From a virus (taxonomy: Duplodnaviria > Heunggongvirae > Uroviricota > Caudoviricetes), in the IMG/VR virus record IMGVR_UViG_2531839665_000013: a DNA stretch of 32,154 nucleotides; one strand, written 5' to 3'. Position 1 is the first letter of the stretch. Each line of letters begins with the position of its first letter. A program made the translations under genes and the position numbers. Of this stretch, positions 15,219 to 32,154 are shown piece after piece. The notes beneath the pieces are model-generated. The model was given only the letters and a program-made list of their open reading frames with translations. It was not told the origin of the DNA and ran no database searches.

Positions 15219-15410
15219 ATGAAAATGTTCAGAGGCCTTACCAACGAACCGGAGACAGTTTTTCATCACATTGCCGTACTGCTTGAAGCGGGGTTAATCA
15301 TTTCGGCTTGCGGTGATGAAGAATGTGATGAACTTTCGGATGATATCTTTTTACTGGCACAACAATACGCCAGAAGCGCATGCGATGCATTTAAGGAGCA
15401 AAGAACATGA
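15219..15410 (+). CDS. Hypothetical small acidic protein (63 aa)
   Basis: AGGAGG RBS 8 nt before ATG at 15219 (the track ORF starts further upstream). Confidence 0.5.
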   Translation: MKMFRGLTNEPETVFHHIAVLLEAGLIISACGDEECDELSDDIFLLAQQYARSACDAFKEQRT

Positions 15411-18900: not shown

Positions 18901-20187
18901 ATGAGTAACGCATCATACCCGACAGGCGTTGAAAACCATGGAGGATCACTCCGTATATGGTTTCACTATAATGGCAAACGTGTCAGAGAAAACCTCGGTG
19001 TTCCTGACACAGCCAAAAACCGGAAGATCGCTGGTGAACTTCGCACTTCCGTTTGTTTTGCAATCAGAATGGGGAGTTTCGACTACGCCGCGCAGTTCCC
19101 TAATTCCCCTAACCTGAAACACTTTGGTCTGGGAAAAAGAGAGATAACCGTTAAGGCACTTTCGGAAAAATGGTTGGACCTTAAGAAAATTGAGATAGGA
19201 AGTAATGCATTCAGTCGGTATCAATCCGTGGTGAGAAACATGCTTCCTCGCATAGGGGAAAAACGTCTTGCTTCGTCGGTAACAAAGGAAGATTTACTGT
19301 TTATCAGGAAAGATTTGTTAACCGGGTATCATAATCTCTCTAACGGAAAAACAACGCCGATTAAAGGGAGGTCAGTAGTTACGGTTAATTACTACATGAC
19401 GACAATTGCAGGAATGTTTCAATTTGCGGCTGATAACGGCTATATCGTGTCAAACCCATTTAACGGCCTGACACCATTAAAGAGATCCAGAACAGAACCA
19501 GATCCGCTCACACGAGACGAATTTATTCGTTTTATTGATGCCTGTCACCATCAACAAACGAAAAACCTGTGGTCCTTAGCAGTATACACAGGCATTCGTC
19601 ACGGTGAGCTAATATCTCTCGCTTGGGAGGATATTGATTTAAAAGCTAAAACAATGACTATCCGTCGTAATTATACAAAACTCGGGGAGTTCACTCTACC
19701 AAAAACAGAAGCGGGAACTGATCGTGTTATTCATCTTGTTCAACCAGCTGTTGATGCCCTGAAAAGCCAGGCTGAAATGACAAGACTTGGCCCTCAGTAT
19801 CAAATTGACGTCAAGCTTCGGGAGTTCGGTCGCACTGCACGCCATGAATGCACGTTTGTTTTTAATCCGCAACTGGTGAAAAAATGCCAGCAAGTCGGTC
19901 ACCACTATAAAGCAGATTCCATCAGAGATTCCTGGGCATCTGCATTAAGGCGAGCAGGACTGCGGCACAGAAAAGCCTATCAGTCCAGGCATACTTATGC
20001 CTGTTGGGCATTATCGGCAGGAGCGAATCCAAGCTTCATAGCAAACCAAATGGGCCATGCAAATGCACAAATGGTATTCAACGTTTACGGAGCATGGATG
20101 AAAGATAACAATATCGGGCAAATAGAACTACTCAATAAGCAGTTGACGGAGAGTGTCCCATACATGCCCCATAGAGCCAGACTCTGA
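18901..20187 (+). CDS. int: Tyrosine integrase (lambda Int family)
   Basis: 428 aa; C-terminal catalytic region with ...YTGIRHGELISL... (Arg), ...HANAQMVFNVYGAWM... and RHTYA; N-terminal arm-binding-like region; last gene before the host junction. Confidence 0.9.
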   Translation: MSNASYPTGVENHGGSLRIWFHYNGKRVRENLGVPDTAKNRKIAGELRTSVCFAIRMGSFDYAAQFPNSPNLKHFGLGKREITVKALSEKWLDLKKIEIGSNAFSRYQSVVRNMLPRIGEKRLASSVTKEDLLFIRKDLLTGYHNLSNGKTTPIKGRSVVTVNYYMTTIAGMFQFAADNGYIVSNPFNGLTPLKRSRTEPDPLTRDEFIRFIDACHHQQTKNLWSLAVYTGIRHGELISLAWEDIDLKAKTMTIRRNYTKLGEFTLPKTEAGTDRVIHLVQPAVDALKSQAEMTRLGPQYQIDVKLREFGRTARHECTFVFNPQLVKKCQQVGHHYKADSIRDSWASALRRAGLRHRKAYQSRHTYACWALSAGANPSFIANQMGHANAQMVFNVYGAWMKDNNIGQIELLNKQLTESVPYMPHRARL

Positions 20188-20229
20188 AATAATATCTTTA
20201 AATATCAGTTGTTTTAATGGTAGTTGCCG

Positions 20230-20625
20230 TCACATTAACTGCGTGGAGGGCAACACCACGCTTTACGCCCTGCCGAAACCCGAGGTTGTCCTGCGCTGGC
20301 GTGAACAGACCACAGATGACTTCCGCTTCTGTTTTAAGTTTCCGGCGACCATTTCGCATCAGGCAGCATTACGACATTGCGATGATTTAGTGACTGAATT
20401 TTTGACCCGCATGTCACCGTTGGCTCCGCGCATTGGGCAATACTGGCTGCAACTGCCTGCCACATTCGGCCCACGGGAGCTGCCTGCGCTTTGGCATTTT
20501 CTCGATTCTCTCCCTGGCGAATTTAATTATGGTGTGGAAGTCCGCCATCCACAGTTTTTCGCCAAAGGGGAAGAGGAACAAACTCTTAATCGCGGTTTAC
20601 ATCAGCGCGGCGTTAATCGGGTGAT
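20230..20625 (+). pseudogene. Fragment of a host chromosomal gene flanked by two mobile elements; possibly yecE (DUF72)
   Basis: Mid-GC ORF with no start of its own beginning right after int and ending where the AT-rich element begins. The yecE identity is from recollection that yecE is a lambdoid/Stx phage insertion site, not from alignment. Confidence 0.35.
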
Positions 20626-20697
20626 TTTCATCAGACACGTTTAAATACACCACCTAAAGCGATACAATCGCGCTATTAGTTTTTATGGTGGTAAAGA

Positions 20698-22221
20698 ATG
20701 AAACGTGTAATCAGCTACATCAGATTCAGTTCTGAGCGACAAGCCAAAGGCGACTCACTACGCAGACAGTCTAAGATGGTTAATGACTGGCTTAAGGCTC
20801 ATCCTGAGTACTACCTTGACCAAGATTTATCCTTCCGTGATTTAGGTGTGAGTGGATTCACTGGTAAGCACTTGAAAGGTGGCTTAGGTGACTTCTTAAC
20901 CGCTATCGAGAAAGGGCTTGTTAAAGCTGGTGATACGCTCTTGATAGAATCTCTTGACCGTTTGTCACGTCAGGCCGTAGACCGAGCAAGTGAGCTATTA
21001 CGAAACATTCTTCGCTCTGGTGTAGATGTAGTCACCCTGTCCGATGGTGAACATTACACAAGTGAGTCTCTTAAAGACCCGTTAGCTCTGATTAAGTCCA
21101 TCTTGATTATGCAAAGAGCACATGAAGAGAGTCTGCGTAAATCTGAACGTATACAAGCTGCATGGAACCGTAAAAAAGAACTCATCTCTGAAGGTATCAA
21201 GATTTCTAAGCGTTGTCCTGCATGGTTAAGGCTGAATGATGACCGTAAAAGCTTCTCTGTAATCCCTGAGAAGGTAGAAACTGTGAAGAGGTGCTTTCAG
21301 CTACGATTAGAGGGTAAGTCTATCTGGGAGATTGTTCGGACTCTTAATGATGAAGGTCACCAGACGCTTAACCAGCACAAAGCGGGTTCATTTGGTCAAA
21401 GCTCAGTACAAGACCTTTTGAAGAATCGTTCTGTAATTGGTTACTTCACACCTAAAGGCTGTGAGGAGATATCTGGTTATTTCCCCCCTATCATCCCTGA
21501 GACTGATTTCTACAAAGTCCAGCAACTATCATATTCTCGTTATGGAAGAAAGCCTGCTTCAGATAAACCATTGAGTGTGAATCTCTTTAAAGGTGTTATC
21601 CGTTGTTCTGAATGTGGTCATGCTCTGATTATCACAGGCTTTAGCGATACAAGAAACGGGATTTATCGTTGTCCTCTTCGTAATGAAAACCGTTGTAGTG
21701 CTAAAGGGCTGTCACGTAAGCAAACCGATGGTACATTGCTTACCCTGCTATCTCGTCTTGACCGATTTGATAGCGATACGACGAATACCATAGATATGTT
21801 GAGGCTACACCGTGAACACATCTCAAGCAATATTGAAAAGCTGGTACAGCTATCACTTGAAATTGAAGATTTGTCAGCTATTACCATCAAACTAAAGCAG
21901 TTAAAAGGTGAGCTATCACAGGTTGATGCGGATATCGAGAAGGAGACACAACGCCTTAAATCTATTGATGTGGGGTGTTTGTCCGATTGTGACTTGACTA
22001 CAAAGGCGGGAAGGATTGAAGCACAACTGATAATCAAAAGTGCTGTTAAAGAGGTCGTTTTAAATACTGCTAAACGTCGCTGTAAAGTAACTTTTCACAA
22101 CGGTAAAGCAATCACCTTACCAATAACAGAAAACCCCTCAGAGGACGTTACAGAGGCTATACAGTCGCTTTCTGAAGTCACTGAGAGGGGGTTGATAGAT
22201 GTTGATGAGGTTATCATATAG
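20698..22221 (+). CDS. Large serine recombinase (resolvase/invertase N-terminal catalytic domain + recombinase domain + zinc ribbon)
   Basis: N-terminus VISYIRFSSERQ (catalytic Ser), ...LLIESLDRLSR...; 507 aa; Cys cluster CSECGH...YRCPLRNENRC; long C-terminal coiled coil. Confidence 0.88.
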   Translation: MKRVISYIRFSSERQAKGDSLRRQSKMVNDWLKAHPEYYLDQDLSFRDLGVSGFTGKHLKGGLGDFLTAIEKGLVKAGDTLLIESLDRLSRQAVDRASELLRNILRSGVDVVTLSDGEHYTSESLKDPLALIKSILIMQRAHEESLRKSERIQAAWNRKKELISEGIKISKRCPAWLRLNDDRKSFSVIPEKVETVKRCFQLRLEGKSIWEIVRTLNDEGHQTLNQHKAGSFGQSSVQDLLKNRSVIGYFTPKGCEEISGYFPPIIPETDFYKVQQLSYSRYGRKPASDKPLSVNLFKGVIRCSECGHALIITGFSDTRNGIYRCPLRNENRCSAKGLSRKQTDGTLLTLLSRLDRFDSDTTNTIDMLRLHREHISSNIEKLVQLSLEIEDLSAITIKLKQLKGELSQVDADIEKETQRLKSIDVGCLSDCDLTTKAGRIEAQLIIKSAVKEVVLNTAKRRCKVTFHNGKAITLPITENPSEDVTEAIQSLSEVTERGLIDVDEVII

Positions 22222-22235
22222 TTGAGATTCTATCG

Positions 22236-23009
22236 TCAGTATCGCTTGTTAGGATTAACAGAATACTTCTTCAAAGTACTACCTGTACCAGCATTATTAA
22301 GCACCTTTGAAGCTTGCTCATTAGCGGCATCTGAGAAGGTGCTTTTTCCATTCTCAACTTTGACACTTTTACCACAATTGATACGGGCTTGAAGTTGCTC
22401 ATTAGTGAGTTCACTCGTAGAGCGATTATATAGCTCCTGACACATCAACATACCATTACCTAAACTTGTTGTAGTGTTACCTGTATTCTTCTTACTGGTA
22501 GCACCACCATCATTCGTAGTCGCGGCTTTTCCAGTTGCAGCCGAGATATCAGTCTGTCCCACAACAGCTCTGAAGTTAATTTCCTGAAAAGTTAGTTGGA
22601 TTCTTAATCCGTTTGAAATTCCAACATCTTTAGAGGCTTTAAAACTCGTAATAATGGAATCATCAATCTTGATACCGTCTTTACAGATGACCGAAATAAT
22701 TTGCTTCTGGTCACGCCAGCTTTCGAGAGTGTCAATGAAGTTTTCTACTAATTGACCCTGACGAGTTAATAATAAGCTTCCTTCATAGCCAACTACAACG
22801 ACACCACTAATAGTGATTGTTCTGGGTGCTCTTTGCACATTATCTGTGACGGTTTGCCCTGATTGCATGTTCTGTGTAGTCACCTGCATAGGACTATCAA
22901 ATTCCATGTTTTCAGTTGCTGATAAGGTTAAGAAGGCATCTACATTGTCTCTTAAGTGGAAATAGATGCCATCTTTGCCACTATATCTAAGTTGTTTTTT
23001 GTCAAACAT
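22236..23009 (-). CDS. Hypothetical protein (257 aa) downstream of the tape-measure gene; possible distal tail protein
   Basis: Position only (gene after TMP); Thr/Gly/Asn-rich central region. Confidence 0.55.
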
Positions 23010-23098
23010 TGTTGTATTCCTCTTAAGGGTGAGCTACATGAATACACCTGAGTAGTTATAGGTCGTAATTTTTAATTTTCACGTAGAACACCGTTAAA

Positions 23099-25147
23099 TC
23101 AATCATCTTCTGGATAGCTTGAACTTAATAGCGTAGCTTCTGCGTATTGGTCGTAGATATTACTGCTAAAGGTCATAAAGCTGGTTTCATCTGGTTTAAT
23201 GGCAACTTCACCACCAAGTGAAACTTTCACAGGCTCCTGAATACGTTTGCTCAAAGCACTAATTTCATCTCTCAGGCTTTGGATATCCGTATTCGTTAAT
23301 GCCGCATCTTGTCTCATGGTGATTAATTCTGGATGCTGGAAGTTAGCAAGATTCATAGCTGCACTATTAAACCAACCTTTCACATCATCCATAGTGAACA
23401 CTGGTTTAAGTCCAGACTCTTTAGCTAGCTCTGGTAATTTAGCTTGTGCTTCCATTCGTTCAGGTGTAGAAGCTAATCTCTCATAACCTGCATAGATAGC
23501 ACTACCAGCTAATAGCATATTCCCAAGATTAAACCTTGATGGTTTCCCGTTCTTTCTATTCACGTTATCCGCTGTAGTATCAGCGACCTGACCTAATCTT
23601 GTGATAGCAGTCATAAGCCCGTAAATACTTCTGGTTACACCAACAACTTTATTCACAGCAATAACACCAGCCAAGACTTTTAAACTATTAATCAAGCCAG
23701 AACCTAAAGCATCAACTACTTTCTTTTGTTCATCGGTTAAACCACGATAAGCTAATGTCACCTCATCGAAGAATGCTCTTACCCTGTAAGAAATATCGGT
23801 TAGTGAATCGACCCCATGCGACATATCACTCATCAAGCTACCAAAACTTTCACCTAATGTTTTACCACTCCCACCTAAACTATTTAAAAGATTGGTTAAG
23901 CTTCTTGTGAAATCTTGAAGACCATCTTCAGAACCTCTGAAGATATCCGTTAGTGAGTTGTTCCAAGTATTCTTCAAGTTCCCTAGCATTGTCTGCGTAG
24001 AGTCCTGAATAGCTTTCCAGCCACCTCTTGAATTAATCTGTGAACCAAGTTCTTTAGCAAACTTAGGGAGTGCATCAGAGGCTTTAACATCACCATTTTT
24101 CATCTTATCGAAAAGCTGTTTTTCAGTCAGACCTAAAGCCTTTGCAAATGCCTGAGTAGCACCCGGTAAAGCTTCAGATAGTTGCCCCTTAAGTTCTTCA
24201 GCCATCACCTGACCCTTAGAAGCCATCTGCGACACTGCGGTTAATGCTCTTTGAATCTGCTCATCTGAACGACCCATTAAACGAGAATAACCTGTAAGGT
24301 TTTTAAATAATTCCTCTGCCCCTTCAAGACCCATCGTGTTCTTTGCAGATGCACCAAATGAAGCAAATTGCGCTTGTGTTTCGGTTGTGTCCATACCAGT
24401 AATTTGAGTTAAATCCTGAATGAACTTTTTAACCTGTGTACTTTGGTCACCGAATACGAAATCAATACTTCTTTCCGATGATGCACGTTGAAGGCCAACT
24501 TCCATAATCTTCTGATAACTGGCTAATACAGCCTGAAAGCTGATAAATGCACCTGCTGTTTTAACTGCTGCTGAACTCAAACTATCAAGACTATTAGCTG
24601 CTCTGTCACCATTAATGCTGGTGGATGTATGACCTTTAGCTTTAGCAATTGCTTCTCTGACTGAAGCATTTAGCTGAGCCAGCTTCTCATTGAATTTTGA
24701 AGAATCCATTGAACCGGCTTTAGCAGATAGCCCGTAAAACTGAGATTTGATGTATTTCTGCAAAATAGGGTCAAAGCCTTTTAGCTTAGACATATTAGCT
24801 GAGTAAGCCGCTGTGATTGCTCTGTTGCCGCTAATTCGTGGCTGTCTTGGTTGTTTTGGAGGATTAACAGTGTCATTAAATCTGGTGGCAAACTGAAATG
24901 CTCTTGTGTTTCTTGCTCTCTGTTCAATCTTGTCAAAGGTCTTATTAAACTTCCTTTCAAGTTGCCCTAAAGAACTTGTCAGATTGCTGTCAAGCTGCTT
25001 TGTATTAATCCTGAAACCTTTATTTAGGTTCTTTTCAATTCTTTGTGCTGACTGCAAAGCTGCCTTTTCAACTCTTTGCAAGCCCTTAATAACGTTTTCA
25101 CTGAAGCCTAGCTCAACGATAAAACTATCAACTTTAAACTGTGCCAT
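23099..25147 (-). CDS. Phage tail tape measure-like protein (682 aa)
   Basis: Core motif ...MASKGQVMAEELKGQLSEALPGATQAFAKALGLTEKQLFDKMKNGDVKASDALPKFAKELG... is typical of tape-measure proteins; AAGAGGTGA RBS. Confidence 0.75.
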   Translation of the reverse strand: MAQFKVDSFIVELGFSENVIKGLQRVEKAALQSAQRIEKNLNKGFRINTKQLDSNLTSSLGQLERKFNKTFDKIEQRARNTRAFQFATRFNDTVNPPKQPRQPRISGNRAITAAYSANMSKLKGFDPILQKYIKSQFYGLSAKAGSMDSSKFNEKLAQLNASVREAIAKAKGHTSTSINGDRAANSLDSLSSAAVKTAGAFISFQAVLASYQKIMEVGLQRASSERSIDFVFGDQSTQVKKFIQDLTQITGMDTTETQAQFASFGASAKNTMGLEGAEELFKNLTGYSRLMGRSDEQIQRALTAVSQMASKGQVMAEELKGQLSEALPGATQAFAKALGLTEKQLFDKMKNGDVKASDALPKFAKELGSQINSRGGWKAIQDSTQTMLGNLKNTWNNSLTDIFRGSEDGLQDFTRSLTNLLNSLGGSGKTLGESFGSLMSDMSHGVDSLTDISYRVRAFFDEVTLAYRGLTDEQKKVVDALGSGLINSLKVLAGVIAVNKVVGVTRSIYGLMTAITRLGQVADTTADNVNRKNGKPSRFNLGNMLLAGSAIYAGYERLASTPERMEAQAKLPELAKESGLKPVFTMDDVKGWFNSAAMNLANFQHPELITMRQDAALTNTDIQSLRDEISALSKRIQEPVKVSLGGEVAIKPDETSFMTFSSNIYDQYAEATLLSSSYPEDD

Positions 25148-25174
25148 TGTTCATATTTCACCTCTTAAGTGTTC

Positions 25175-25206
25175 ATAGACTTCGGATAGAAGACTATCCT
25201 CATATA
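25175..25206. promoter_or_regulatory. 32-bp element ATAGACTTCGGATAGAAGACTATCCTCATATA (copy 1), containing palindrome GGATAG-AAGA-CTATCC; upstream of the TMP gene
   Basis: Identical copy at 26891-26922. Confidence 0.6.
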
Positions 25207-25301
25207 CAAAAAAGGGAGAAACTACCGAATAATATCGATAATCTCTCCCCGTGTTATAGATTCGATAGAACCTATCTCATACACCCAACCAATTCTTTTT
25301 T

Positions 25302-25511
25302 TTAATGCCTGACAAGATAATGTAATTCCGTTTCACCTATGATTTGGGCATCAGAAGGGATACGGTCGATACACCACTTTGGAATCTTGCGTGTTTTTGG
25401 TTTGTGTGAGGTGATAACTTGACGTTTGTTTTTAATTCTTAAGGCTGGATTGGCTTGTAACTTTAAGTTTTCACAAACAGACCGAATAGTCTCTAAACGT
25501 TCTTCAATCAT
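25302..25511 (-). CDS. Hypothetical small protein (69 aa)
   Basis: GAGGTGA RBS directly before the ATG; start context TGAGGTGATGAATG shared with the next gene. Confidence 0.45.
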   Translation of the reverse strand: MIEERLETIRSVCENLKLQANPALRIKNKRQVITSHKPKTRKIPKWCIDRIPSDAQIIGETELHYLVRH

Positions 25512-25533
25512 TCATCACCTCATAATTCAATTT

Positions 25534-25842
25534 TCACTCCAAGAAGCGAATGCACTTTACACCGCGTTCATTCTTTACAATTTCGTAACGTATTGAGAGA
25601 CCAGCTTTATCAAAGATAGATTCAAGCCGTCCTACATCACGCTTGAGGTCTCTAATAAGGAAGGTTAAATCATCTCGACCCTCAAACTTTAGTTCGGCAA
25701 GAGGCTTTTCTTCCATACGACCAATAAGATATTCAGTGACCTCCTGAATATCACCAAGAGTCGTTTTAATTTCATTGAACCTATCTTCAAAAGGTTCCAT
25801 TACCCCTTTAATTCTTTTATCGCGTTCTGTTAAATCATTCAT
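25534..25842 (-). CDS. Hypothetical acidic protein (102 aa)
   Basis: GAGGTGA RBS; ORF from track. Confidence 0.55.
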   Translation of the reverse strand: MNDLTERDKRIKGVMEPFEDRFNEIKTTLGDIQEVTEYLIGRMEEKPLAELKFEGRDDLTFLIRDLKRDVGRLESIFDKAGLSIRYEIVKNERGVKCIRFLE

Positions 25843-25850
25843 TCATCACC

Positions 25851-26555
25851 TCAAATAGCCTTGCTAAATTCTCGTGGAACACTCAGAAAATCATTGAAGC
25901 TGATAATCTGTGCCAACTCTTGACGGTACTCCTTAGCCAACGCTTGATGGTCACTAATCAGCTTAGCCAGTCTTGATTTCAGCAAATTAATCTCATTTTC
26001 TCTTGCTTTCATCAGTTTCTCTTTGGCAATTTCTTCAAGCTCAGCCTGTGATTTATCAGCAACAATTAGAGACAGTCGATGTGGTGCTCTGACAGCTCTT
26101 TCTGTACGAATAACTCTTTGACCTTCTGGTAAATCTGCAATCACTTTACCAATCTCTACAGGGTCATACCCCCAACCGTCACGGTCCAGTCGAGAGAAAT
26201 AAGCATAAGAATTGGTTTGAAGCTCCATCGAAATAGCCATTTCGTCAATTTCGTCTTCAAGCTTGGACTGAATTTTCTCGTAAACACTTCTCATTGCTTC
26301 TTGAGAGTCTTTAATAGCTTGGAAATATCGGCGTTGTAGCTTCAACTTCAAATCAAGTTCACACTGTTCGTTCATAGAAAAATCAATTTCAACTCTTGGA
26401 ATCTCGAGTGGTTCTGGTGGAATATATGGACCTTTATTTACTTCGTGTGATTCCCGCCAAGCTCTATCAAAAGATTCACGCAAAGTTAATTCGTGAATAT
26501 CAAGTGCACTTGGTCGGCTTTCAATAATCATTTCATTTTCATCACGGATAGCCAT
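25851..26555 (-). CDS. Hypothetical protein (234 aa), highly charged with coiled-coil character
   Basis: ORF from track. Confidence 0.6.
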   Translation of the reverse strand: MAIRDENEMIIESRPSALDIHELTLRESFDRAWRESHEVNKGPYIPPEPLEIPRVEIDFSMNEQCELDLKLKLQRRYFQAIKDSQEAMRSVYEKIQSKLEDEIDEMAISMELQTNSYAYFSRLDRDGWGYDPVEIGKVIADLPEGQRVIRTERAVRAPHRLSLIVADKSQAELEEIAKEKLMKARENEINLLKSRLAKLISDHQALAKEYRQELAQIISFNDFLSVPREFSKAI

Positions 26556-26890
26556 TAATACCTTTCCTCTTCTAAGATAATTTATGTTTCAGTTTTTAAA
26601 AAGCACACCTGACATCCTCGAACTTAGAAGAGGCTTAAAAGGCGGTTTGCCAAGTATGCTTTTTAAAAGCTGAAAAAGCCCTAGATAACTAAAACGCTAT
26701 AAAGGGCTAAGGTGAAGAAATTAAAGAACATCTAAAGGATTCAATGAATGAACAAAGACTTTTCGAGATGACCTCTCAGACTAACCTGAAAGGCCATGTA
26801 GCGAAAAGCATTGCACCTTTCCAACTCAGAATATAGTTATCATCGATGTAGAATGATTAATATTTTAATTCAAGGAGAATTGCTCCCCCT

Positions 26891-26922
26891 ATAGACTTCG
26901 GATAGAAGACTATCCTCATATA
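26891..26922. promoter_or_regulatory. 32-bp element, copy 2 (identical to 25175-25206)
   Basis: Read directly. Confidence 0.6.
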
Positions 26923-26979
26923 TACAATTATGTCATGCTCAAGGTTATTTGTCAACAGCTTTTAACAGATTGGTAACAT

Positions 26980-27045
26980 TTATACTTTAATAGATGCACC
27001 TGCAATCATACCAATCAATACAAAACAGATAATCACCAATCCCAT
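26980..27045 (-). CDS. Possible 21-aa hydrophobic peptide (MGLVIICFVLIGMIAGASIKV), TAATG-coupled to the upstream gene
   Basis: Hand-translated; start overlaps the stop of the 27045-27374 ORF. Confidence 0.25.
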   Translation of the reverse strand: MGLVIICFVLIGMIAGASIKV

Positions 27046-27374
27046 TAATGCACCACCTTCGAATCCGTCACCAAAATATTGTCAGCGTACAAAATTGCTA
27101 TAGCTGCCTTGAGATATCTTTCAGGGCTAACGCTGTATTTGCTCGTTTGCTCGATAACCAATCTTTTCATGTTGCTGTCTTTAATTGGTAGCATCATTCG
27201 AGGCTCGTTAAACTCCACCGACTGAATAAAGTCAGAGATGCTTTCCGCATTATCAGTCATTAACTCTAACAACTTATCAAAGTCAATGCTAATACCTGCA
27301 TCAGTGAAGCTTTGCACCATCATAGCGGTGTCGTTATCAATAAAAATCTGTAGTGGGAAGTTTAATTCTCTCAT
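27045..27374 (-). CDS. Hypothetical acidic protein (109 aa)
   Basis: AAGGAG RBS; ORF from track. Confidence 0.55.
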   Translation of the reverse strand: MRELNFPLQIFIDNDTAMMVQSFTDAGISIDFDKLLELMTDNAESISDFIQSVEFNEPRMMLPIKDSNMKRLVIEQTSKYSVSPERYLKAAIAILYADNILVTDSKVVH

Positions 27375-27523
27375 TTCCTAAAATCTCCTTTTTACCATAC
27401 CTCCTCAATCGCTCTGTAACGAGCTAAACAGTCTTTTTCAGGGGTAGCATGTAGGGGTGTACCACATACCTAAAATAAGATAGTTTTTTGCGTTAGAATG
27501 CGATTGAGAGCGTCTGAGAAGCT
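27375..27523 (-). repeat. Left arm of a ~150-bp imperfect inverted repeat (promoter/5' leader of the 27045-27374 gene)
   Basis: Aligns by eye with the reverse complement of 30293-30445; shared blocks GCTTCTCAGACGCTCT, TTAGAATGCG, TAAAATAA, GTGGTACA, CTACCCCT, GCTCG(T/C)TACAGAGC. Confidence 0.55.
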
Positions 27524-27552
27524 GTTTTTCTAATTTCTCTTAAAGTCTCGGA

Positions 27553-27753
27553 CTACCAATAACCTAATTCCGCTTTATTTCGTTCAAACCATTCCGCTGT
27601 AACTGCTGTCTTTAGTGTTGCGTTTGGGCTGGTGGCATGAATGAAGATATCTTTTGGATTGCAAGCATCACCGAAACCACCTTCTTTGATGAGCAGGTCT
27701 GATACATGCTTAATCATTTTATCTGTCAAATATTCGAATTTAATACATAGCAT
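27553..27753 (-). CDS. Hypothetical small protein (66 aa from the Met that overlaps the HNH stop)
   Basis: TAATG overlap with the upstream HNH gene; the track ORF extends to 27786. Confidence 0.45.
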   Translation of the reverse strand: MLCIKFEYLTDKMIKHVSDLLIKEGGFGDACNPKDIFIHATSPNATLKTAVTAEWFERNKAELGYW

Positions 27754-28025
27754 TAAATCTCCAGTAGTAAATTGTTTGGGTCGCAATTTCTTTTATTACC
27801 ATCCCTGAAGATAATTTTTTTAGTTGCCTGAACTTCATGATGCAAAAACCAGATGACATACTTCAGATAATAATCACGAGTGCCATAACGAATCATTGGA
27901 TTACCGTAAGCATCATCTCTTGTCTTAACTTCTCCACCATCAATCCATTCAAGCATTCCTGTTTCGTAATTAATCATGAAGTAAGTTGCAAAGAACCGTT
28001 TAATATCATCTCGCCATTGCTTCAT
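27753..28025 (-). CDS. HNH-type endonuclease (small, homing-endonuclease-like)
   Basis: ...HHEVQATKKIIFRDGNKRNCDPNNLLL... fits the HNH His...Asn...Asn pattern; AGGAAG RBS. Confidence 0.6.
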   Translation of the reverse strand: MKQWRDDIKRFFATYFMINYETGMLEWIDGGEVKTRDDAYGNPMIRYGTRDYYLKYVIWFLHHEVQATKKIIFRDGNKRNCDPNNLLLEI

Positions 28026-28027
28026 AA

Positions 28028-28309
28028 TCAGACTTCCTGAGACAGTTTGTGAATTTTGATACTTAGTAACCTTGCTAAATCCAGTCCAAAAGCATTTAAA
28101 GATTTCAGACTATCAAGGTCATCTTTCTTAATCCTGACATGGTGTCTTGCTGCCTCTAAACGACTATTAAGCAAATCCTGCTCGTTAATATCACGGTTAA
28201 TTGCAAGCTTCATCACTGCTGAGTGTGGCAGACCTGTAATGTTTTTGATTCGGTTAAGTTCTTCAAAGGCTGTCTTTGTAACTCTGGTTAGCGTGTGTTT
28301 ATTTCCCAT
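28028..28309 (-). CDS. Hypothetical small protein (93 aa), possibly a DNA-binding regulator
   Basis: Internal Met of a track ORF; ATG sits 1 nt after the upstream stop (TAA-A-ATG). Confidence 0.45.
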   Translation of the reverse strand: MGNKHTLTRVTKTAFEELNRIKNITGLPHSAVMKLAINRDINEQDLLNSRLEAARHHVRIKKDDLDSLKSLNAFGLDLARLLSIKIHKLSQEV

Positions 28310-28310
28310 T

Positions 28311-28865
28311 TTAAAATTCCTCTGCTTGTGCGTATACGTCAAATTCAAAGTCTGGTTCACTGGTTGTAAGGCTGATATTTCCAACTTCCGCATGATGATT
28401 AATTGTCTCAATAACTTTCATGCAAATAGTGGCTAAGTTAGCGCAATATTTATCACTTGGTAATTCGTAGCTAAGTCTGGTTGCTTGTCTTTGAAGATGG
28501 CTCGTCACTGTGCTTGAACTAATCTCATCAAGGCTTCGAAGCAAATAAAAAACCTTCCGGTGATAGTTATCCCTTCCAAAGCTGCGACAAGTACCGATAA
28601 TTACATCTTCAATTTTTGATGGTAGTTGCTCGTAAGAATCAAAGCTCATCAAGAAAGTTTTTAAAGTATTCTCTTTTTCTTTGCGTACTGGCATAAATCT
28701 GTCTCGTGGCGTAATGCTACGAATGACCGCTTCAATGTTTTTACGTTCGGTTTTGGAAAAGGCTGGTACTTCGTAGCTGGTGGGGGTGTCTGTGTAAGCG
28801 TAGGAGTTGTGCTTGTTGCGCTCTCTTGATGCTTGAAGCATCGCTCTAAATTCTCTGTCGTTCAT
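28311..28865 (-). CDS. Hypothetical protein (184 aa)
   Basis: ORF from track; first gene after the long non-coding region. Confidence 0.6.
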   Translation of the reverse strand: MNDREFRAMLQASRERNKHNSYAYTDTPTSYEVPAFSKTERKNIEAVIRSITPRDRFMPVRKEKENTLKTFLMSFDSYEQLPSKIEDVIIGTCRSFGRDNYHRKVFYLLRSLDEISSSTVTSHLQRQATRLSYELPSDKYCANLATICMKVIETINHHAEVGNISLTTSEPDFEFDVYAQAEEF

Positions 28866-29375
28866 TCATATTCTGACCCTCATGAAATGTTATTATTCTG
28901 TTAACTTATATATACAATACTAGCATTTTCAAAGACTAATGTCAAGTATTTTTTAACATTTCATTAACATCTGTGGTATAATGGTTCTATGAGAGAGGGG
29001 GAAATATGAAGCGTGGCTATGTATTTGGTCACATGTTTTTGCATTGCACACAGAAGGTACATTGAATGGTAAATCTCCCTCCTGAGCTGGGGTCACCTGA
29101 TGTATGGGCTGGTGGAGGTGTTGGGCTGATTGCAGGTCTTCTGCTCCGCTATTTCATCGTTCGGGTGTTTATCGTGTTCAGATTGTTTGGTCGTGAATGG
29201 TCATTTGACCTCAAGGACAGGACCAGAACAGACAACCACACAGACCCCCGTTAAACTCCCTTCAAATCCCCCTGTACGAGATGGTATAGGGGCATTTTTA
29301 GCATTTTGTGCTATCTATTAAAAAACAGCTTGACAGAACCGGAAGGCTGTATCTATCAAGTATTCACCCCTCTAA

Positions 29376-29530
29376 CAGTGATTTCTAAAAATGCTTATTT
29401 TTCAATGAGTTGTAATTAGCCAATATAAAGGACTGACAAGACTCTTCACAGAGAACTCTGTAACCTTAACATTGATTTCTAAAAGTTATTATTTTTCAAT
29501 AAGTTGTAATCACCCAATATAATAGCTGTT
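29376..29530. repeat. Two ~60-bp direct repeats (29376-29435 and 29469-29530) inside the coding-poor region
   Basis: (C)AGTGATTTCTAAAAATGCTTATTTTTCAATGAGTTGTAATTAGCCAATATAAAGGACTG vs ACATTGATTTCTAAAAGTTATTATTTTTCAATAAGTTGTAATCACCCAATATAATAGCTG; most positions agree. Confidence 0.6.
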
Positions 29531-30292
29531 CAGCACCTTCACAGGGAAACTTCAGAGGCCTTCTTAACCGTCCACTAATCGAGAGAGAGGGTGATACATG
29601 AGAAAGAACCCTCCCTTCTTAAAAACCTTCTTGACAATCTTTACAGACCTTGTTCAAGGTAATCACAATAGTTTTCTTCCCTCGGTTTCCTGTGTTCCTC
29701 GGTTTATCTATTGAGGGCTTTGAAATGTCCCTGTAACTTCCCTCTTAGACAGGGAAGAATAATATTGGTGACACAAGCGAAGCGCCCCTCTAAAAAGATT
29801 TTTTAGCTACTTTGTTTAAAAGCACATCAAACGATACATTTTATTGATTTAGGTCAAAGACAAAAGCATTGACAAAATGGTAAGATTGTTCACATGACCT
29901 TACTTAACAGATTCTTGAGAGCTTTGAAACGGCCTATTTAACAAGGTTACTACCTCTGGTCTTATCGCTCCCTCTTGGTAGTTCTGTTAAGAATTTTTCA
30001 GTTTTTATTCTTAAGATAATTGTTAAGATGATACTCTCCCCTTCGGGTTATATCGTATCTTTCCTCCCGTTAAACACTCCTTCCTAGCAACTTCATAGTT
30101 ATCTGTCAAGTACCTTTGAAGATTCTATCAAAACCCTCTAAATCCGACCTGATATAGAAGTTTTACAGGCATACTCTCTAGATACCATCAAGGGACACTA
30201 AGCGGGAGAGAGGATATGGTGACCATAGGGGAACCCCTCCTGTTAAAAAGACCACTTAGAAGTCTGAGACTTTAGTAAAATCTGTGAATATG

Positions 30293-30445
30293 GCTTCTCA
30301 GACGCTCTGTAACGCATTCTAAGCGATTTTACCCCTTTATTTTAAGATGGGTGGTACATACCTATAGACTACCCCTAAAACTGGGGTTAAAACTCGCTAC
30401 AGAGCTTTCTATGAGGTTTGGTAAGATTGTGCAAAATCTGTACAG
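30293..30445 (+). repeat. Right arm of the ~150-bp imperfect inverted repeat
   Basis: See the left arm at 27375-27523. Confidence 0.55.
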
Positions 30446-31070
30446 TAACTTTTCAGAGTCTGAAAATTTTTATAAAAATCATAGTAACCCCTCTACATTT
30501 CCCTTCACCGATAATCTTAAAAAATATCTACACAGTTGATTCGGTAGAATCTACCTCATGATTGATGGCTGTTAAGTACCCCAGATTCACGATATAGCAC
30601 CCCCTTTGCAAAAGCAGTTAAAATATCTATTGACTTTCTTCATAGCATCTGTTTAGCTCCACCTCAAGAAACCTTCACCACACTTCAAAGCATCTATCAA
30701 GAAGATTTAACCTATCAATAGCTGTAAAATTTTATAGTCCTGTGAAGTCCTCCCCAGTTTTCTCTGTAACAGCTACAAACTTCTGTGACCTTATGTATCA
30801 ATGACTTAGAATACATGCTCTCAAGGTTCTGTATAGTCTCTTATCATCCAATACATAAAACCCTTATAAATCAGTACTGATATGTATACAGTTCGTTTTT
30901 AACATAATAGCTGTTTTACGCACTAATCGTGTTCTACATGAAATCTGTATAGATATTAAGGTGTCTGTAAGTGATTTTTTAAGAGGAGCTACGAAGAACT
31001 ATAACCATCATCTCCTAACTTTCACATGAGAAACTGTTAATCAGCTTGATAGTTACACCATGTGACCAAC

Positions 31071-31318
31071 TGCATAGATAGCGTTATATAGCACTGTATA
31101 TAGCACTTTTCTAGGAGTCGAGAGAGGGACGACTAACACCCTGCATAGCTCCCTGAAAAGAGACTTCACAGATTCTTTATATATTTCAATAAGTTATGAT
31201 AAAAAGGGACTATACCGATACTGCATAGAATCTGTGTAGAATTGCATAGATACTTGGAAAAATGCCTTTAAATTGCATAGGTACTAACCTGTTTATGTCC
31301 TGTTATTTACAGGCATAG
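31071..31318. repeat. Iteron-like cluster: TGCATAG at 31071, 31142, 31222, 31244, 31274 (and GCATAG at 31313), plus TATATAGCAC x2 at 31086-31107
   Basis: Read directly. Confidence 0.55.
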
Positions 31319-31320
31319 CA

Positions 31321-32154
31321 TTATTGGTTAATTAATTCATCCGACTCTATATCATTACCTTTTTCTTTTTCCTTTTTAATTTTAGCCTCTACCATATCGA
31401 ACATTTTCATTGTCTGTGATGAAGTTAGCTCTTTCTTTTGTCGTAGTGCATTACGTATGGTAGAAGCTTCAATATCAGAAACTGTTAAAAGTTCTTCTAC
31501 CCTACTCTTCAATTGCTGTAATGAACGGCTATTATCAACTTTAAAGAAATCATCCATTACCTCAAGTGAGGCAACAATCAAATCCTGTAGTCTCTCTTTT
31601 TCTATCTCGATATTTTCAATGGTTTGTTTTTCTTTAGATACTAACTGCTTTAAATTATTAATTTCTTTCTGAATCAGTTTCTTCTCTGTCTGTAGCTCTT
31701 CTGTGACCAGCTCTTCACGCTTACCACGCTCTACTTCCGCTTTAATATCAGCATCAATTTTAGCATTTTCTTTCTCTTCTTCTCTGGCAACCCGAACCTT
31801 TAACCCCGTTAACCTGATTGAATTAAGGTATTCTTTTTCCTTTGTAAGATAAACATTTTCACTGTGTTTATCTGTAGCCCATTTTTGAGCAAGAGAAAGT
31901 AACCATTGAGCATAAGGAGTAATAACAGCTAGCACACTTCCAAAAAAGACAGGTGCTAACAGATAATGTACATAAAAATATTCCTGAGACAGAATATAAT
32001 CTATTCGAAACTTAACAGGAGCATCACTCATAAAGAGCATTGCTAAGTTAGGCCAATTGAACCATACCCATGCAAGAATGATATATCCCCATAATGGGCT
32101 TTTAATCCTATCGTTTATTGCTTGCATAGTAGAATCTAACCATCCATCACTCAT
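31321..32154 (-). CDS. Hypothetical membrane-anchored coiled-coil protein (277 aa); start codon at window edge, may extend beyond
   Basis: N-terminal hydrophobic segments (LWGYIILAWVWFNWPNLAMLF; LLAPVFFGSVLAVITPYAQWLL) followed by a long Glu/Lys-rich heptad-like region. Confidence 0.55.
   Translation of the reverse strand: MSDGWLDSTMQAINDRIKSPLWGYIILAWVWFNWPNLAMLFMSDAPVKFRIDYILSQEYFYVHYLLAPVFFGSVLAVITPYAQWLLSLAQKWATDKHSENVYLTKEKEYLNSIRLTGLKVRVAREEEKENAKIDADIKAEVERGKREELVTEELQTEKKLIQKEINNLKQLVSKEKQTIENIEIEKERLQDLIVASLEVMDDFFKVDNSRSLQQLKSRVEELLTVSDIEASTIRNALRQKKELTSSQTMKMFDMVEAKIKKEKEKGNDIESDELINQ

Follow-up and report, generated by a model that had tools for sequence, protein, structure and literature searches.

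PLE of Vibrio, satellites of the strictly lytic phage ICP1, carry a partial mimic of the ICP1 pac site that adjoins their ori (bioRxiv 10.1101/2024.04.22.590561), and the small PICMI islands, which depend on virulent vibriophages and have no capsid-remodelling genes, are packaged as concatemers (PMC10803314). The window analysed here, a stretch of 32,154 nucleotides (IMG/VR record IMGVR_UViG_2531839665_000013), holds an 11.6-kb island inserted in yecE (20630-32154, with the right end about 94 bp past the window) that is like PLE in its scale, its large serine recombinase and its relationship to a virulent myovirus. Also as in PLE, a large gene-free region with repeats is present, and a short partial copy of the helper packaging region lies beside island-specific repeats. 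In PLE this copy is 89 bp long and 71 % identical and has a core of 14 identical bp; in the island it is about 237 nt long and 65 % identical, and its 43-nt core is 93 % identical. Unlike PLE, to which it has no sequence homology, the island has no recognisable RepA-like initiator, TcaP or Gps proteins but carries homologues of the tape-measure and Dit-like/baseplate proteins of its putative helper. This helper type packages by direct terminal repeats, so that the mimic covers the genome terminus itself, and satellite behaviour is, in contrast to PLE, something that we infer. As for PICMI, packaging as concatemers would be a way for an 11.6-kb element to fill an 88-kb head, although gene content and integrase differ.

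The repeat array at the right end of this island also has parallels in well-studied cis-acting sites. Like lambda cosB (R3-I1-R2-R1), it combines short inverted and direct repeats around an IHF site beside a genome-end site, but there is no sequence similarity, the terminal repeats involved are not cohesive ends, no Nu1/TerS-like protein was recognised, and binding in the island is predicted. With iteron origins (pSC101, R6K gamma, P1 oriR) it shares same-direction repeats, partial helical phasing, an IHF site and an adjacent easily melted AT-rich segment; unlike these origins, it has units of about 10 to 11 bp instead of 17 to 22 bp, several copies that are not conserved, no DnaA-box enrichment, and an initiator gene that is neither adjacent nor recognisable. 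The SRL and SRR short-repeat arrays of phage T7, whose function is unsettled, reportedly flank its terminal repeat and likewise consist of imperfect repeats of about heptamer size that lie immediately outside a direct terminal repeat, but they have another motif, belong to another phage family and lie in the phage rather than in an island. We view the TGCATAG cluster as a site where a protein probably binds, in a satellite element that parasitises phages and is as yet undescribed, and its best reading is as the most regular part of a 317-bp island-specific module with predicted protein binding and an invariant IHF-type site.

Island architecture and relatedness to Felix O1-type phages

The islands have a constant gene order, which in the window runs from a large serine recombinase (20698-22221, + strand) via a Dit-like/baseplate protein (22236-23009), a tape-measure protein (23099-25147) and about eight small ORFs including an HNH (all - strand) to an ORF-free stretch. 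A 184-aa ORF lies at 28311-28865 and a 277-aa cargo gene encoding a coiled-coil protein at 31321-32154 (both - strand). The ORF-free stretch was found in 547 to 571 of 5426 complete E. coli genomes, mostly at 80 to 90 % identity and always inside the island. The attP arms are GGTGTATTTAGAC and GTTTAAATACACC, and there are three chromosomal insertion sites: yecE, the 5' end of tonB beside yciI, and the interval between wrbA and ymdF. Islands at tonB and wrbA-ymdF have the same architecture with other large serine recombinases.

As is typical for a satellite, these are integrated islands with their own integrase and an incomplete set of virion and replication genes. The only structural genes that can be recognised are those for the tape-measure and Dit-like proteins, and the island has no capsid, terminase or replication genes. 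Searches of Pfam, PHROGs, NCBIfam and PADLOC recognised no Rep, primase, helicase or terminase-like protein, no island protein could be assigned to DNA binding, replication, partition or packaging, and no repressor-like (HTH) gene is conserved across islands. The 184-aa protein has no Pfam, PHROG, NCBIfam, PADLOC or PDB match, and its AlphaFold model (pLDDT 70, helical) has no Foldseek match; 88-kb contigs encoding this protein proved to be ordinary chromosomal contigs. Among metagenome contigs we found integrated copies only and no excised, circular or packaged island DNA.

Several features of the insertion sites and of the remaining island are worth recording. A lambdoid prophage (1-20200, tyrosine integrase at 18901-20187) ends about 77 nt into yecE (yecE fragment at 20227-20629), and the serine-recombinase island follows about 400 bp on, so that yecE has been hit twice in this genome. 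The prophage encodes the RNAs AgvB (6632-6693) and STnc100 (6694-6886) as well as two tRNA-Arg and a third tRNA match (6961-7206). At the tonB site (L003 8317-8579 with L153; L007, L206 and L207), insertion occurred in the first tonB codons (ATGACCCTTGA/island), which leaves the Fur-box promoter about 11 kb from the gene; tonB must therefore be expressed from about 90 bp at the recombinase end of the island. A second conserved intergenic stretch (26556-27044, - strand) shows 80 to 95 % identity in all islands and has a strong promoter, TTGACA-17-TGnCATAAT (26955 to 26927), with a leader of about 370 nt before a 234-aa gene; this leader holds CTTTTAAGCCTCTTCTAAG, which is very like CTTTTAAGCCTCTTCCTAG of the phage terminal repeat. 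A 22- to 24-bp hairpin insert, TAGGGGTTGGnACAAGCCCAAC, is found in L002 (about 920-945), L006 (about 3120-3145), L007 (about 15285-15310) and L015, in some islands between attL and the recombinase gene and in others in the terminal block before its hairpin, which suggests a tiny mobile or recombinogenic element.

The relationship to Felixounavirus is evident from both proteins and DNA. In Felixounavirus, the gene that directly follows the tape-measure gene encodes a protein with about 82 % identity to the Dit-like protein of the island. The tape-measure proteins of island and phages can be aligned along the full length of the island one at 29 % identity, and the island GC content of about 37 % is like that of the phages and unlike that of E. 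coli (phage side PMC3185647). A 43-nt core in the ORF-free region (30520-30562) is 93 % identical to 20 Felixounavirus records and leads to a 1.75-kb gene-free region of phage VpaE1 that lies between converging gene blocks. Sensitive comparison widens this match to 237 nt (E 1e-20), and a profile built from island copies hits the phages at E 1e-13 to 1e-16, compared to E of about 2 for the best shuffled sequence. Felixounaviruses package via direct terminal repeats (PMC8303462, PMC11737134); bases 1-581 of phage D4 (PP886228) equal bases 88859-89439, i.e., a 581-bp terminal repeat, and this repeat falls inside the gene-free region. The Felix O1 genome paper (PMC3185647) gave us no function for the phage gene-free region, which is dense in phased octamers (L147 1913-3663 for VpaE1; L151/L152 for D4), with CTTAACAG/CTAACAAG near one repeat end and three copies of the inverse TGTTAAGAA at the other.

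Positions 30410-30680 (+ strand) of the window are the homologue of the region around one boundary of this terminal repeat (boundary A) and include the terminus sequence. The phage terminus CTGCTT/GGTAGCCC corresponds to CTGTTA/AGTACCC at 30574/30575 in the window and to CTGCTA/AGTACCC in other islands. Islands and phages share the order CTGTAYAG, TTCAGA and AAAATTTTTATAAA, then AAAAATATCTG, an optional insert of about 30 nt, the terminus, and CCCCTTTGCARAA followed by AAATATC, and the insert shows the same presence/absence polymorphism in both. Pieces homologous to the interior of the terminal repeat lie at 29878-30030 (E 1e-8, 5e-7 and 0.009), one direct and one inverted, so that the ORF-free region is a mosaic of phage end sequences in rearranged order. 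A phage profile spanning the second boundary (B) reached significance in a single island, L003 (E 3e-4, with shuffles at 1.6 or worse), where it places boundary B at 30996/30997, the left edge of the conserved terminal block described below. This block would thus lie just outside an equivalent of the terminal repeat of about 420 bp and before attP. A strict collinear mapping of the cluster onto the repeat interior is undermined by the rearranged pieces at 29878-30030 and by non-significant profile searches, and the start of the JLBYU28 record was discarded as a physical end because this record has no terminal repeat. By sequence similarity, a packaging-site mimic is found at 30410-30680 and not in the TGCATAG block.

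The identity of the Dit-like proteins, the tape-measure homologue, the terminus homology and the common octamer family point to a specific helper relationship. Given its own integrase, few virion and replication genes, helper-related components and partial copy of a packaging end, we infer that the island is a PLE-like satellite propagated at the expense of an infecting Felixounavirus.

The TGCATAG array and the conserved terminal block

TGCATAG occurs five times within 210 bp on the + strand (31071-31077, 31142-31148, 31222-31228, 31243-31249 and 31274-31280), as the earlier note had described except that it put the fourth copy at 31244. The whole window holds eight copies, all on the + strand; none was found on the - strand, the left end of the island included. 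Motif statistics against shuffled sequence, the check that the note had proposed, place the cluster far beyond chance: when the local 250 bp were shuffled 5000 times with dinucleotides preserved, no 7-mer ever reached four copies; a 7-mer with five copies in 250 bp is found nowhere else in the 32 kb; and 300 shuffles of the 2.45-kb non-coding region never yielded five copies in one window. The supposed AT-rich context is not special, with a GC content of 0.32 to 0.44 in the cluster and about 0.36 to 0.38 across the whole island. A sixth GCATAG, at 31313, is present as claimed but straddles the end of the homology between islands and is not conserved.

The degenerate form TGYRTAG occurs eight times on the + strand between 30830 and 31280 and once on the - strand in the whole ORF-free region. 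The array is one-directional and consists of eight units, of the types TGCATAG, TGTATAG and TGTGTAG. Two TGTATAG members lie upstream (30830-30836 and 30946-30952, + strand), each inside (A)TCTGTATAG, and the cluster proper (31071-31280, + strand) comprises the five TGCATAG copies plus TGTGTAG at 31233-31239 (copy 3b). The copies at 31222, 31233 and 31243 are phased at 11 bp and then 10 bp, copy 5 (31274) follows 31 bp further, and the repeat unit is roughly A-W-Y-TGYRTAGA, i.e., about 10 to 11 bp. Scored over 18 distinct island variants, copy 3 (31222) is conserved in all 18 as TGYATAG, copy 5 (31274) in 15, copy 3b (31233) in 14, copy 4 (31243) in 11, copy 1 (31071) in 8, and copy 2 (31142) in only 3 of the 18. 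Only half of the array units are conserved between islands. Measured against iterons, the repeats are unidirectional and non-random but only 7 to 11 bp long, and two of the five exact TGCATAG copies are poorly conserved.

The cluster lies in a conserved terminal block (30997-31313, + strand) whose limits were set by alignment of 8 and later 18 distinct island copies. About 570 of the E. coli genomes have this block, invariably at the end of the island beside attP or cargo, and it is retained irrespective of where the island is integrated, which recombinase allele it has and which cargo lies next to it. Both copies of TATATAGCAC that had been reported were located (31085-31094 and 31097-31106, + strand), and the second one, inside CTGTATATAGCAC, is invariant in the island homologues; GAGAGG-ACGACTAACAC is another invariant element. 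At 31180-31198 (+ strand) an invariant core, TATATATTTCAATAAGTTA, has one mismatch to the IHF consensus WATCAANNNNTTR and an A/T tract upstream, and only one other 40-bp duplex of the island is less stable than the one around this core (-40.3 kcal/mol compared to a mean of -49.9 +/- 3.1). This core is flanked by a 10-bp inverted repeat, CACAGATTCT at 31166-31175 and AGAATCTGTG at 31226-31235, of which all 10 pairs are identical in 8/8 sequences with no covariation; the right arm overlaps TGCATAG copy 3 and TGTGTAG. The block closes with an invariant terminal hairpin/repeat, ACCTGTTTATGTCCTGTTATTTACAGG (31287-31313; CCTGT twice plus ACAGG), which adjoins attP, and homology between islands in different contexts ends directly past it. 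The layout of inverted arms, IHF site, phased units and easily melted core suggests a bent nucleoprotein complex.

No counterpart of the block was found in 50,697 phage records even at E<=1, the only four matches to its invariant arm in IMG/VR are all island copies, and a phage profile of the flank outside the terminal repeat gave no match to the block above noise. Its tie to the phage end is therefore positional only. The location just downstream of a membrane/coiled-coil gene, which the earlier note had used as a landmark, is incidental, since the 277-aa gene is cargo missing from many islands: it is absent in L003, L004, L005 and L007, and another gene replaces it in L006. In islands without it, the block lies about 27 to 75 bp from the attP arm. 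The cluster is thus part of the module that terminates a putative Felixounavirus satellite and does not go with the coiled-coil gene.

Other functional signatures were looked for in the same region. DnaA boxes are not enriched (63 compared to 75 expected), and likeness to the T5 injection-stop region was dismissed as a mere analogy from DnaA boxes with no homology. A sigma-70 promoter array (10 promoter-like sites compared to 7.2 expected), transposon-like ends (no inverted TGCATAG anywhere in the window), a known RNA family (no Rfam match at E<=1, and no compensatory changes in the block) and small ORFs in the block (only 22 to 38 aa and not conserved) were all rejected. Arm-type or res accessory sites should co-vary with the recombinase of the element, but the same block accompanies three different large serine recombinases and att sites. 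The exact 19-mer TATATATTTCAATAAGTTA is found in more than 120 unrelated genomes, both bacteria and viral contigs (L008-L146), often between element-specific short repeats or beside tRNA 3' ends, though such att-like contexts are anecdotal. Composition-matched control 19-mers gave 1 and 11 matches in IMG/VR compared to 19 for TATATATTTCAATAAGTTA, so that its count is not significant.

The block ends an ORF-free region of about 2 kb (29300-31320) within an ORF-poor stretch that extends from 28866 to 31320, with the cluster at its closing end. This ORF-free region is conserved at least as well as the island genes across divergent islands, and no ORFs, tRNAs or Rfam families (even at E<=1) were found in it. 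It is about 10-fold enriched in CTNNAYAG octamers (29 compared to 3.0 +/- 1.8 in shuffles), as is the phage gene-free region (35 compared to 3.0 +/- 1.8), and towards its right end the island has this octamer family in the variants CTGCATAG and CTGTATAG. The region has four IHF-like sites, all on the + strand; one of them matches the strict IHF consensus (30796). Two others (29400 and 29494) lie in a 94-bp tandem duplication (29373-29548, about 80 to 88 % identical by method), with one IHF-like site per copy as well as a CTTCACAG element akin to those in the terminal block.

Just upstream, at 28917-29297, a divergent promoter pair (TTAACA-18-TGnTATAAT on the + strand, TTGACA-17-TAGTAT on the - strand) accompanies a + strand unit with a possible 19-aa leader, a 62-aa hydrophobic membrane peptide (29066-29254) and a strong terminator (29269-29297). 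Some genome annotations list the peptide as a hypothetical protein; it may be a toxin or a small membrane protein of the exclusion type. Between phage-end mimic and terminal block lies a hotspot for inserted genes (about 30530/30613 to 30997; equivalents in L003, L005, L007, L015, L026, L004, H11-H13 and L206). Genes for two small serine recombinases, which are unrelated to each other, were found in it, together with an AP2/HNH-type homing-endonuclease-like gene, the gene for a Dam methyltransferase and, in O157:H7 and O111 copies, IS1203. That the small recombinase segment is an invertible element was rejected, as these are unrelated insertions absent from the window.

Candidate roles of the terminal block

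The proposal that such clustering is typical of replication origins or partition/packaging sites holds insofar as the array is non-random, direction-biased and non-coding and has a neighbour homologous to a phage packaging end, but no recognisable initiator, partition or terminase gene accompanies it. With a non-random array, no signs of RNA or coding, and a phage end next to it, a role in cis in replication or packaging is the most reasonable class. Our tentative preference, held with somewhat less confidence than an even call would imply, is that the block may be the origin of replication of a PLE-like satellite, bent by IHF and located beside a packaging-site mimic. An infecting Felixounavirus would be the helper of an island integrated by its large serine recombinase. 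The module lies between the island attP and the mimic of a Felix O1-type genome end, with a predicted IHF-type bending site between inverted arms and same-direction TGYRTAG(A) units flanking it; host IHF and a DNA-binding protein encoded by island or helper might assemble a bent nucleoprotein complex there that would mark island DNA for helper-dependent amplification. Unwinding and host-factor signatures are mixed: the block contains an IHF-like site and the second least stable 40-mer, but DnaA boxes are not enriched. Against an origin also speak the want of a recognisable initiator, primase, helicase or terminase-like protein (no Rep gene is found in the island, the adjacent 184-aa neighbour without structural match included), units shorter than classical iterons, and the poor conservation of copies 1 and 2. 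The satellite side of this reading further has to contend with a block that has no phage counterpart, a mosaic ORF-free region that is not collinear, and metagenome contigs that yielded no excised, circular or encapsidated island DNA.

The closest competitor, which we consider unlikely though less so than the others, would make the block a packaging-specifier site, where a small-terminase-like protein of the island binds the IHF-bent DNA and recruits the large terminase of the helper to the phage-end mimic; in a variant, the block would correspond in its role to the arrays of repeats flanking the terminal repeat of T7-type genomes. Its position directly right of the probable terminal-repeat equivalent (A at 30574/30575; B at 30996/30997 in L003) fits well, the inverted arms around the IHF site recall R3-I1-R2 of cosB, and the phage repeat ends in three phased TGTTAAGAA units that resemble the three phased TG(CAT/TGT)AGAA units of the island. 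Felix O1 itself has no recognisable TerS (PMC3185647), and PLE use GpsA/GpsB besides pac mimicry (bioRxiv 10.1101/2024.04.22.590561), both of which we count in favour. However, a site read by the helper machinery should resemble the helper, and the block has no phage homologue; no TerS-like protein was recognised in the island, and the mapping of boundary B is significant in one island variant only. An origin-like role is slightly favoured over that of a packaging specifier, because recognition at an origin is expected to be island-specific and because of the layout of PLE.

Readings based on transcriptional control, recombination or a relic/RNA are less likely than either of these. Repeats that act as operators, bound by a repressor or an activator that controls a promoter within the block, are a reading that we regard as quite improbable; they could serve the - strand candidate TACACA-18-TATAGT (31238-31209), which overlaps copies 3 and 3b, or a + strand promoter into the recombinase gene that exists in the circular form only, where the block would come to lie upstream of this + strand gene. 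Operators are commonly short, phased and combined with IHF, but promoter-like sites are not enriched here, TACACA-18-TATAGT scores only 9/12, and there is no good + strand promoter near the block end. The nearest - strand gene is 2.3 kb off and has its own strong promoter (10/12), and a conserved repressor-like (HTH) gene is absent across islands. A decaying remnant, i.e., a defective phage leftover with repeats as functionless relic, would account for the lack of capsid, terminase and replication genes and for the scrambled phage-end mosaic of the ORF-free region; we find it very unlikely together with the related alternative of a structured non-coding RNA. The non-coding region is conserved as well as the genes or better across divergent islands, the architecture is the same at three sites with recombinases intact, and core elements are invariant in 18 variants, while an RNA is opposed by the lack of an Rfam match at E<=1 and by a covariation term near zero (RNAalifold -0.24 in the block, with invariant helices). 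Lowest of all we rank accessory recombination sites, arm-type or res-like, for serine recombinases or a directionality factor. These would suit a block end about 27 to 75 bp from the attP arm, the small serine recombinase gene beside the block in some islands, and an IHF-plus-repeats layout that resembles attP arms. Yet the block does not change between the three integration sites, although their large serine recombinases differ, and such integrases need only sites of about 50 bp and no accessory factors; the small recombinases are unrelated insertions, and inverted copies are lacking at the left end of the island.

Possible satellites of Felix O1-type phages

The main interest of the cluster is the element that it revealed. 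In the literature searched, with subscription journals outside its scope, we found no description of a Felix O1-type satellite, and mimicry of a terminal-repeat-type packaging end was not among the satellite mechanisms described there. That about one tenth of E. coli genomes carry undescribed PLE-like satellites of virulent Felix O1-type phages, with the TGCATAG/IHF module as their own origin or packaging-specifier site, strikes us as a proposition just short of evenly balanced. The module would then be a compact cis element of about 320 bp.

Phages of the Felix O1 type are classic tools in the diagnosis and biocontrol of Salmonella and E. coli. If our reading as a PLE-like satellite is true, this would be the first satellite system for these phages, which are widely used in typing, biocontrol and therapy. 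Should an island that hijacks or blocks these phages be present in a tenth of E. coli genomes, the efficacy of phage therapy and biocontrol would be affected, and the PLE/ICP1 model of a satellite of a strictly lytic phage would be extended to enterobacteria.
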